From contig CAWJAS010000001.1 of assembly GCA_963840935.1 (NCBI GenBank), positions 192,875-256,874 on the forward strand: a stretch of 64,000 bases of DNA, in the 5' to 3' direction. The position numbers were made by a program, and so were the translations under genes. Origin of the DNA: Candidatus Magasanikiibacteriota bacterium. GTDB lineage: Bacteria; Patescibacteriota; Patescibacteriia; Magasanikbacterales; GWA2-37-8. Of the stretch, positions 51,100 through 52,248 are shown piece by piece. The notes under the pieces are model-generated. The model saw only the letters and a list, made by a program, of their open reading frames with translations. It searched no databases and was not told where the DNA came from. Position 1 is the first letter of the stretch, and each line of letters opens with the position of its first letter.

Positions 51100-52248
51100 T
51101 TATCTCCCCAATTCCCAATTCGGGCTGGCTTTGAGTTTGCGCCAGTCGATGTAATCTTTTTTTTGCGTTTTATGCCAACCGGCGACCGCGACCATGACCG
51201 CATTGTCCATGCAGTATTTTGGTTCAGGTACAAGGAAATTTGAGTTTGGAAAATTATTTTCCATTATTGTTTGAAGCGTACCGCGCAGTTTTTTGTTGGC
51301 GCTTACTCCTCCGCAGAGGATAACGGTTTTTGGTTTGAATTTTTTTATGGCGCGCGTCATTTTTCCGACTAGCGTGTCAACAATGGCTTGCTCAAACGAG
51401 ATGCAGAAGTCGTTGATAGTTATTTTGTCATCCTGATCCGCCAGTTGGCGGAGAAGGATCTTTTCGTTTTTTAATAAAAGATTCTTCGGTCGCTTCGCTC
51501 CCTCAGAATGACAGAGGGGGTTATCGCGCAAATAATACAGCGCTGAGGTTTTTAAACCGGAAAAAGAAAAGTCGAAATTATTGCTTTCAAGCATCGGACG
51601 AGGGAATTTTATGGCGACTGTTTTGCCTTCAAGCGCCAATTTGGAAATTTGTGGACCGCCGGGATAGGGGAGGCCGAGTAGTTTCGCCACTTTATCAAAA
51701 CATTCGCCGGCTGCGTCATCGCGCGTGGCGCCGATGAGTTTGTACTGGCCTGGTTTTTTTATCAATTGAATTTCCGTGTGTCCTCCGGAGACAATCAAAG
51801 CTAGCGCCGGATAAACAATTTTATTATTTTTGGAAATTGGAAATTTGACATTTGAAATTTCGGTGGAGTGTATATGCCCGGCCATGTGATTCACACTAAT
51901 CAAAGGAATTTTCCAAACGGCTGACAATGTCCGCGCCGCTTCCACGCCGACAATAAGTCCGGTGATAAGTCCGGGGCCGGATGCAACGGCAATGGCATCG
52001 GGTTTAATAAACCTCACCCCAGCCCTCTCCTTATTAAGGAGAGGGGGAGTAAGCACATCTTCGATTAATGGCACAATTTTTTCTGCATGCATTCTTCCGG
52101 CTATTTCCGGTACCACTCCGCCATATTTTTTGTGGATGTCAATTTGCGAAGCAGTGGATTCGCGGATGACAAAACAGCCCTGCTTAGAACATTCCAAGAG
52201 GGCCACTGATGTGTCGTCGCATGAACTTTCAATACCGAGAATTTGCAT
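51100..52248 (-). CDS. tsaD: tRNA N6-adenosine threonylcarbamoyltransferase TsaD (Kae1/Gcp family) carrying an in-frame insertion of about 30-35 aa
   Basis: MQILGIESSCDDTSVAL...NHMAGHIHS. Inserted segment ...PLCHSEGAKRPKNLLLKNEKILLRQLADQ... between the conserved SFSGLKT and AIVDTL regions. Confidence 0.85.
   Translation of the reverse strand: MQILGIESSCDDTSVALLECSKQGCFVIRESTASQIDIHKKYGGVVPEIAGRMHAEKIVPLIEDVLTPPLLNKERAGVRFIKPDAIAVASGPGLITGLIVGVEAARTLSAVWKIPLISVNHMAGHIHSTEISNVKFPISKNNKIVYPALALIVSGGHTEIQLIKKPGQYKLIGATRDDAAGECFDKVAKLLGLPYPGGPQISKLALEGKTVAIKFPRPMLESNNFDFSFSGLKTSALYYLRDNPLCHSEGAKRPKNLLLKNEKILLRQLADQDDKITINDFCISFEQAIVDTLVGKMTRAIKKFKPKTVILCGGVSANKKLRGTLQTIMENNFPNSNFLVPEPKYCMDNAVMVAVAGWHKTQKKDYIDWRKLKASPNWELGR
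51425..51514. repeat. In-frame GC-rich palindromic repeat-element insertion within tsaD
   Basis: ttgtcatcctgatccgccagttggcggagaaggatctttt...agattcttcggtcgcttcgctccctcagaatgacag. Terminal inverted repeats CTGTCAT.../...ATGACAG. Confidence 0.55.

Follow-up and report, generated by a model that had tools for sequence, protein, structure and literature searches.

The Rickettsia palindromic elements (RPE) are short palindromic repeats that lie in frame within Rickettsia genes (Ogata 2000 Science 290:347; 2002 Genome Res 12:808; as relayed in part by PMC10969869). In the part of that account drawn on here, they measure ~100–150 bp, comprise ten Rickettsia families (RPE-1 to RPE-10) and are called unique to Rickettsia (PMC10969869). 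We describe an element of this general kind in a 64 kb stretch of Patescibacterial DNA (contig CAWJAS010000001.1; hereafter the window), where a palindromic repeat of 88 nt lies in frame within tsaD, the gene for an essential tRNA modification enzyme. The insert is probably a selfish, non-autonomous hairpin repeat resembling a miniature inverted-repeat transposable element (MITE), which has come through selection as an in-frame survivor, is read through in translation and represents an analogue of the RPE.

As far as RPE are described in PMC10969869, the likeness is that of a short palindromic repeat standing in frame in unrelated housekeeping genes of a reduced genome, which would be translated as a fold-compatible extra peptide and is understood as selfish DNA filtered by selection. 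In-frame inserts occur in both tsaD and fpg of the window, and the TsaD fold is predicted to be intact around the insert, which falls between two helices. The element differs from RPE in its length of 88 nt, in being built of two ~33-nt modules of the form GTC-palindrome-C and in having relatives in many phyla; the two are likened here by description only.

A further group of related repeats comprises the Neisseria NTS (CGTCATTCCCGCGMAVGCGGGAATCYRG) and the broader Ssn-related motifs (SRM), hairpin repeats that reach hundreds of copies in typical carrier genomes (Chenal et al. 2025, PMC11893778). SsnA, a 94-aa single-domain GIY-YIG nuclease with catalytic residues Y6/Y17/E64, binds and cuts NTS as single-stranded DNA only; cleavage depends on the base triplet that precedes the palindrome on its 5' side, and the C directly 3' of the palindrome is crucial for binding (PMC11893778). 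The ssn gene is often flanked by repeats in an insertion-sequence-like architecture, and the study describes intergenic repeats, being silent on in-frame coding copies and on Patescibacteria (PMC11893778). With NTS, dRS3 and SRM, our modules share an oriented GTC, a palindrome that starts with AT and forms a hairpin, a terminal AT followed by C, and membership of a multi-copy family that occurs in many phyla (PMC11893778); modules stand on both sides of small GIY-YIG genes, and a 27/28 match to NTS occupies the same site in an orthologous TsaD. They differ in that the window modules have longer, interrupted stems that fall outside the published pattern and no ssn gene was found nearby.

Repetitive extragenic palindromes (REP) are extragenic by definition, and RAYT is a HUH tyrosine (Y1, IS200/IS605-like) transposase, not a GIY-YIG nuclease. 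Like REP and the bacterial interspersed mosaic elements (BIME), the modules are imperfect palindromes of ~35 nt with a conserved, oriented 5' tag, are often paired in inverted orientation across a short linker, border the gene for an enzyme that acts specifically on hairpins of single-stranded DNA and include dispersed non-autonomous copies (partly following the discussion in PMC11893778), but their tag is GTC(AT) rather than the GTAG of REP and the copies here are intragenic. Known MITEs (Correia/NEMIS, ERIC, BOX) are likewise small and non-coding, have terminal inverted repeats and are occasionally intragenic with in-frame fusions (PMC10969869). The tsaD element is small (88 nt), has inverted termini (TGTCAT...ATGACA) and no coding capacity, and folds back on itself; it differs from MITEs in that its inverted termini are complete hairpin modules, it shows no target-site duplication and no transposase-bearing parent insertion sequence was identified.

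An in-frame palindromic insert in tsaD

The window tsaD (51100–52248, minus strand; Pfam PF00814, E 1e-84) is a host gene encoding a tRNA N6-adenosine threonylcarbamoyltransferase of 382 aa. The close homologues of this protein all come from metagenome-assembled genomes of Patescibacteria, consistent with a host among these ultra-small bacteria (candidate phyla radiation, CPR). An AlphaFold (AF2) model built from 35 orthologues has a mean predicted local distance difference test score (pLDDT) of 85 and superposes on E. coli YgjD with a target-normalised template modelling (TM) score of 0.90. Apart from the insert, the modelled protein is an ordinary TsaD fold.

The insert is a composite palindromic element with termini T/GTCAT...ATGAC/A at 51426–51513 (minus strand), placed from its sequence and junctions, that adds 87 nt (29 codons) at TsaD residues ~244–272. 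An in-frame insert of 30–35 codons had been proposed here in a first-pass annotation made from the sequence alone; its position and frame are borne out, and its size is smaller, with an element of 86–88 nt and 27–29 extra codons. The plus strand of 51426–51513 reads T-GTCATCCTGATCCGCCAGTTGGCGGAGAAGGATC-TTTTCGTTTTTTAATAAAA-GATTCTTCGGTCGCTTCGCTCCCTCAGAATGAC-A. In tsaD sense the element translates as (PL)CHSEGAKRPKNLLLKNEKILLRQLADQDD, flanked by the conserved SFSGLKTSALYYLRDN and KITINDFCISFEQAIVDTL.

Comparison with other TsaD proteins places the segment outside the common gene. The closest orthologues (~80% identity over aligned columns) have PKVNK or KKINK at the insertion point, as in YYLRDN-PKVNK-ADF, versus 35 residues here, and locus L002 encodes a 342-aa TsaD and a 270-aa Fpg that both lack an insert. 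A phmmer alignment to the Salmonella/E. coli TsaD (3zet_B) breaks at the insert, matching query residues 1–243 and 274–362 to chain residues 1–225 and 228–314; residues 244–273 have no counterpart in 3zet_B, and the solved TsaD structures are all without the insert. The extra segment is therefore real, given the short orthologues at this point and an alignment to solved TsaD that is interrupted precisely where the insert lies. In the AF2 model it sits between helices 230–242 and 278–304, with pLDDT below 50 at residues 249–261 and 268–272, that is, over most of its length, and it looks like a disordered surface loop of 29 residues.

The element consists of a convergent (inverted) pair of ~33-nt hairpin modules. 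Module A' (GTCATCCTGATCCGCCAGTTGGCGGAGAAGGATC; 51427–51460, plus strand) is antisense to tsaD, module B (GTCATTCTGAGGGAGCGAAGCGACCGAAGAATC; 51480–51512, minus strand) lies in tsaD sense, and an A/T-rich spacer of 19 nt (TTTTCGTTTTTTAATAAAA; 51461–51479) separates them. Both follow the formula GTC-ATYCT-GA-[GC-rich core hairpin]-GA-AGRAT-C; the core hairpin TCCGCCAGTTGGCGGA (51437–51452) is the strongest block common to tsaD and fpg. A covariance model (R1), trained on 76 modules that all come from genomes other than this one and searched with filters off, recovers module A' at 38.1 bits (E 1e-7) and module B at 50.9 bits (E 6e-11). Folded as RNA, the whole element forms a three-way structure of -37.6 kcal/mol (z = -6.0); folded as DNA, it reaches -18.3 kcal/mol (z = -3.6).

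Only one frame per orientation of the element is free of stops, among six combinations of frame and orientation, and tsaD uses that frame. Removal of the insert by RNA excision or ribosomal bypass was considered and rejected, because excised copies would not need the single open frame, yet the copies lie in it.

A second insert of the same family in fpg

On the opposite strand, fpg carries an insert at 49830–49922 that consists of two tandem modules and adds ~37 residues to Fpg relative to the 270-aa orthologue of L002. The Fpg orthologue of L001, a locus with an independent assembly, has the same insert by protein alignment. Module A (GTCATTGCGAGGATCCGCCAATTGGCGGAGACGCGGCAATC, that is GTCATTGCGAGGA-TCCGCCAATTGGCGGA-GACGCGGCAATC; 49830–49870, plus strand), with its core hairpin at 49843–49858, is a marginal R1 match (13.7 bits, E 0.22), and module B (GTCATTCTGAACGAAGTGGAGCGAAGTGAAGAATC; 49888–49922, plus strand) is a clear one (38.7 bits, E 8e-8). 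As a whole, the fpg element is not significantly structured as RNA (z -0.8).

The two inserts share a 20-nt block, GATCCGCCARTTGGCGGAGA, that covers the core hairpin and its immediate flanks and is identical at 19 of 20 positions (blastn E 0.001); 0.15 occurrences of its 18-nt pattern are expected in shuffled sequence. Both genes also share a GTCATTCTGA...GAAGAATCTTTT module. The pattern GTCATTCTGA-N13-17-GAAGAATC occurs in the window in fpg and tsaD only, with 0.00 occurrences expected by chance, and across the 64 kb R1 recovers the two modules of fpg and the two of tsaD (E 6e-11 to 0.22), with no further hit below E 0.7. Relative to the coding strand, module B points the same way in tsaD and in fpg, but the two genes read it in different frames, as CHSEGAKRPKNL in tsaD and VILNEVERSEES in fpg. 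Since the pair is convergent in tsaD and tandem in fpg, the inserts draw on the same family of parts and are not colinear copies. The homology to the fpg insert claimed by the first-pass annotation therefore holds at the level of the family, not as copies of one element; its statement that two genes on opposite strands tolerate such DNA in frame is upheld, both inserts being stop-free, in frame and lacking in L002.

The gap-free repeat search of the window missed this family because its copies differ by indels and orientation.

The window contains four TCCGCC-loop-GGCGGA hairpins, all within 49.4–52.4 kb and spread across dnaE, fpg, tsaD and tRNA-Met. Besides those in the fpg and tsaD modules, a third copy of the core hairpin (TCCGCCAGCCGGCGGA; 52367–52382, minus strand) lies within a look-alike of the 5' half of tRNA-Met, and a fourth hairpin (49470–49484) is nested in a GC-rich palindrome of the dnaE–fpg spacer. 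The tRNA-Met look-alike itself (52335–52397, minus strand; GTCAGGGTAGCTCA[TCCGCCAGCCGGCGGA]GGTTAGAGCAGGACG) is just upstream of tRNA-Met (52251–52327, minus strand), has the repeat-family core hairpin in the place of the D-loop and is not called by ARAGORN or Rfam. The dnaE–fpg spacer (49425–49500) holds the nested GC-rich palindromes CGGTCGAC..GTCGACCG and GCCCGGATA[TCCGCCTTCGGCGGA]ACCGAGCTATCCGGGC.

The loops of modules seem to take up or swap small GC-rich palindromes, because in the L001 orthologue of fpg module A (7590–7648, minus strand) the inner hairpin CTGCCTGCCGGCAGGCAG replaces the TCCGCCAATTGGCGGA of the window, and because the TsaD protein P0005 has LPQGVTCLPAG nested in a module that P0002 carries without nesting.

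Related modules in other phyla

A scan for GTCATTCTGA-N13-17-GAAGAATC, with one genome per species, matched at least 120 stretches, on which the module counts that follow rest. They come from Acidobacteriota, Chloroflexota, Bacillota, Bacteroidota, Ignavibacteria, Desulfobacterota, Omnitrophota, Planctomycetota, Melainabacteria, Proteobacteria and three CPR phyla (Doudna-, Sungii- and Saccharibacteria among the matches listed). The exact 33-mer of tsaD module B is also present in L017 (Fermentibacteria) and L112 (Bacillota), and the TCCGCC-loop-GGCGGA core of module A' recurs within GTCATTCTGA..GAAGAATC modules of L009, L010, L062 and L085. A search of the window against Rfam returned tRNAs and no other family.

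The variable core of the family is, as judged from these alignments, a conserved hairpin and not a conserved sequence. Among the matches listed, 123 unique cores have 3.29 of five outer positions paired, compared with 1.36 after shuffling. In an alignment of 76 sequences, every core pair shows double-sided changes and the covariation score is 0.35 against 0.09 in shuffled data, with none of 500 shuffles reaching 0.35 and slid controls at or below 0.093; this alignment was trimmed by hand, and the pairing over the 123 unique cores is the unbiased figure.

The arrangement seen in tsaD is common elsewhere: over all loci among the matches listed, 81 adjacent module pairs are convergent, 16 divergent and 16 tandem, and the spacers of convergent pairs in other genomes cluster at ~16–25 nt, a range that includes the 19 nt of tsaD. 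Also among the matches listed, long open reading frames (ORFs) contain 36 of the 140 module hits from the various phyla, and further in-frame modules in Patescibacteria occur in a SecA-like ORF (L085) and a 312-aa ORF (L109).

The module pattern was also observed on 101 stretches of viral contigs (IMG/VR, L127–L227), some with 3–5 copies. No Ssn-like ORF was found in 927 kb of these module-bearing IMG/VR contigs.

Relation to NTS/SRM repeats and Ssn nucleases

All four window modules have a 5' GTC tag followed by a palindrome that starts with AT, an AT end and a 3' C, with stem pairs such as ATTCT...AGAAT-C, ATCCT...AGGAT-C and ATTGC...GCAAT-C. At the same tsaD site, L001, the closest insert-bearing orthologue, has TGTCATTCCCGCGAAGGCGGGAATCCAG, which agrees with the Neisseria NTS consensus at 27 of 28 positions and is a strict SRM match. 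L125 and L126 contain further strict SRM matches, which R1 cross-matches at E ~0.03–0.05. By their architecture the modules belong to an NTS/SRM-like superfamily, of which the window copies are not strict SRM members; they fail the strict SRM pattern because their hairpin stems are longer and interrupted (TCT-GA-core-GA-AGA).

Genes resembling ssn accompany the modules in other phyla. Among the matches listed, 814 kb around module hits contains six Ssn-like GIY-YIG ORFs of ~95 aa, an assignment that combines Pfam PF01541 with residue positions only (the Ssn type being cd10448). Five of the six, all from non-Patescibacterial phyla (L047, L049, L052, L053 and L110), have a module within 181 nt and modules on both sides. 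The module upstream of the L110 GIY-YIG ORF is two 1-nt indels away from tsaD module B, and the Ssn-like ORF of L015 has Tyr 7, Tyr 17 and Glu 64 by count, agreeing with Y6/Y17/E64 of SsnA. Sequence searches of NCBIfam and the PDB with the Ssn-like ORFs gave no matches. Units of module, GIY-YIG gene and module are thus found in other phyla, with none seen in the Patescibacterial loci examined. As modules flank Ssn-like genes on both sides elsewhere, the tsaD element looks like such a unit minus its gene, and the convergent pair would be what an SRM–gene–SRM unit leaves after losing the gene.

In L124, a Patescibacterium with an empty tsaD site, a 94-aa GIY-YIG ORF (1727–2011, plus strand) overlaps the tsaD start, with no modules around it. 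This ORF scores only 48 bits against the Ssn-like hidden Markov model (HMM) and therefore belongs to a different GIY-YIG subfamily.

Repeat content of the TsaD loop

A survey of 120 Patescibacterial TsaD proteins found three kinds of content at the loop that holds the insert: a native segment of 26–30 aa (KLSAxKIIPYELPTGVYGQ..NPPTI and variants), a short link of 5–8 aa, and, in ~20 of the 120, peptides of GTCAT modules that start VIP../VIA../CH.. and end ..RNDK/..RDDK/..QND. At the DNA level, the window, L125 and L126 have T/GTCAT...ATGAC/A composites, whereas L001 has a single NTS at the site. Right junctions fall at the same alignment position, 4–5 codons before the conserved DFC, and left junctions differ in position by as much as 9 nt. 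The inserts of these four loci are translated in two different frames. In a crude neighbour-joining tree of conserved columns, insert-bearing TsaDs are scattered among sisters with empty sites.

The first-pass annotation had suggested that an insertion conserved at this position across unrelated lineages would point to a genuine domain. Extra loop sequence is indeed common in Patescibacteria, yet it is either the unrelated native loop or one of varied modules. Because it is an unrelated native loop or belongs to different subfamilies, is read in differing frames and is scattered among empty sisters, we read the loop as a hot spot that tolerates repeats, as opposed to a conserved domain. The presence of different elements at the same site in the window and L001 can reflect replacement, repeated insertion or exchange of tsaD segments after DNA uptake.

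Two other TsaD loops also contain repeats. GTCAT-type modules occur after HSVEI in about a dozen sequences, and an unrelated palindrome family, represented in the window, occurs after LIExVL. The window copy of this unrelated family is a second in-frame palindromic insert in tsaD (52005–52055, core 52023–52045; CCCTCTCCTTATTAAGGAGAGGG, translated as TPPLLNKERAGVRF), which adds ~12 residues after LIEDVL; the TPPLLNKERAGVRF insert is common to P0002, P0003 and P0015, and most orthologues are without it.

A target-site duplication and a pre-existing GATGAC target were considered on the basis of the empty site KLDDKITI in L124 and set aside, the evidence being too thin.

Origin and maintenance of the tsaD insert

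Our preferred account, which we regard as probable, is that hairpin-repeat modules would multiply at the DNA level as selfish elements. They may spread as hairpin-forming single-stranded DNA under the action of a hairpin-specific enzyme supplied in trans, for which an Ssn-type nuclease acting on extruded or lagging-strand hairpins is a candidate; recombination of transformed DNA would be an alternative route of arrival. In a tiny, gene-dense genome most insertions would be lethal, and selection would keep copies that combine the single open frame with a permissive surface loop. The surviving copy would then be translated into a disordered loop of 29 residues with no required function.

Several observations weigh against this account. 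Transposition by Ssn has been raised solely as a hypothesis and never demonstrated (PMC11893778). The published SRM pattern (HGTCWYN(0-2)YYVSBRHN(0-5)WNVSBRGN(0-2)RNCYNB) has 0 matches in the window. Apart from the L124 ORF of another subfamily, neither the 64 kb window nor ~160 kb of loci from Patescibacteria yielded a GIY-YIG or Ssn-like ORF in regular-expression and HMM searches, and no other nuclease or transposase gene was found in the window or the Patescibacterial loci examined; the best 120 of at least 8000 hits in a search for the Ssn-like family include no named Patescibacterium. No target-site duplication or flanking direct repeat accompanies the element in the window, L125 or L126, and recurrence at one TsaD site could reflect homologous-recombination exchange of tsaD segments, not repeated insertion. 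Finally, two elements in 64 kb do not support a high copy number in the genome. The window has four modules in all, and the related locus L126 has ~9 in 21 kb.

We think it unlikely that the modules are instead kept as cis-acting DNA or RNA signals with the peptide as a by-product. They might serve as recognition sites of an Ssn-type nuclease that modulates recombination of transformed DNA near essential genes, in the manner of Neisseria NTS, which clusters non-randomly near particular genes and modulates transformation (PMC11893778), or as strong mRNA hairpins that tune the translation or decay of tsaD and fpg. A signalling role of either sort would fit the four TCCGCC-loop-GGCGGA hairpins within 3 kb of the window, the RNA fold of the tsaD element (z -6) and the identity of modules across phyla, which suggests constraint by a protein partner. 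However, no Ssn gene was found in the window or the Patescibacterial loci examined, the close relative L002 does without the elements at both genes, the content of the tsaD site differs between close relatives and the fpg element lacks significant structure overall (z -0.8 against the z -6 of tsaD).

We give little credence to a more sweeping proposal, that SRM-type repeats are pan-bacterial protein-coding palindromes which, in Patescibacteria, time and again home to and replace each other at a small set of surface loops of essential proteins (in TsaD alone, three loops), with occupied sites acting as landing pads for a hairpin-specific single-strand DNA nuclease. Were this true, the system would mark essential genes for nuclease-controlled recombination of taken-up DNA and would also serve as a cassette mechanism that diversifies surface loops.

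That the 29 residues have a genuine, lineage-specific function within TsaD as a loop or domain, such as binding a partner, is very improbable and largely refuted by the comparisons above. The insert is in frame and stop-free, and many Patescibacteria have a longer loop here, including a conserved native version of 26 aa. Against this, the loop is missing from the closest orthologues and scattered on the tree, its DNA forms a near-perfect palindrome whose identical copies in other phyla are non-coding or read in different frames, fpg reads the same module in another frame, and the AF2 model gives it a confidence below 50.

An assembly or binning artefact, with foreign repeat reads stitched into a metagenome-assembled genome, is scarcely credible: the identity of the module to copies in unrelated phyla and an in-frame TAA in dnaE, which hints at some sequence errors in the window, speak for it, but the insert leaves an essential gene exactly in frame, the independent assembly L001 has an orthologous fpg insert, and cleanly joined elements occupy the same TsaD loop in three assemblies made independently (L001, L125 and L126).

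If the tsaD insert is the selfish hairpin repeat that we favour, protein-coding palindromes, held to be peculiar to Rickettsia, occur here in an unrelated lineage with reduced genomes. A literature search on in-frame repeats in Patescibacteria found nothing relevant and no paper describing SRM-like repeats of this kind. The elements would also be linked to the NTS/SRM repeats, a superfamily that was first characterised in 2025 as the target of Ssn single-strand nucleases. Should this link hold, SRM biology would extend from the intergenic DNA of Proteobacteria into the coding sequence of essential Patescibacterial genes, the inserts would map, in nature, which loops of TsaD, Fpg, SecA and other proteins are permissive, and part of the variation in TsaD length among Patescibacterial orthologues (331–441 aa) would be explained. 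Annotation is affected too, since inserts of this kind make proteins look more divergent than they are and give rise to spurious low-complexity peptides; they probably also break assemblies. A single instance would be ordinary; what stands out is that hairpin modules which are exchangeable and shared by many phyla recur in loops of essential proteins, together with their tie to a newly discovered nuclease family.

Other features of the window

The neighbourhood of tsaD consists of housekeeping genes only (LemA, an M50 protease, PheS, PheT, DnaE, Fpg, TsaD, tRNA-Met, an epimerase, tRNA-Glu, RNase Y and TruB), and relatives keep the same gene order around tsaD. Neighbouring ORFs have no transposase-like Pfam hits, and no RAYT was seen among them. 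By homology with L001 and L002, the true start of fpg is the ATG at 49564 (MPELPEVE), giving a gene at 49564–50487; the ORF list places the start upstream, at a TTG at 49510.

The dnaE gene (45861–49382, plus strand) is split by an in-frame TAA at 46299–46301 into ORFs of 146 and 1006 aa. The corresponding position is Leu (TTA) in the L002 orthologue, and the TAA could be a sequencing error, a population variant or the mark of a pseudogene.

Repeats of other kinds occur further along the window. A 361-aa ORF without a Pfam match (55656–56741, minus strand) contains a 63-nt unit seven times in tandem (55901–56467), and the region beside tRNA-Glu (55206–55663) has repeats at a spacing of 190–270 nt. 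A perfect 43-nt direct repeat (59161–59203 and 59262–59304), with its two copies 101 nt apart, is located near the 3' end of the RNase Y gene.

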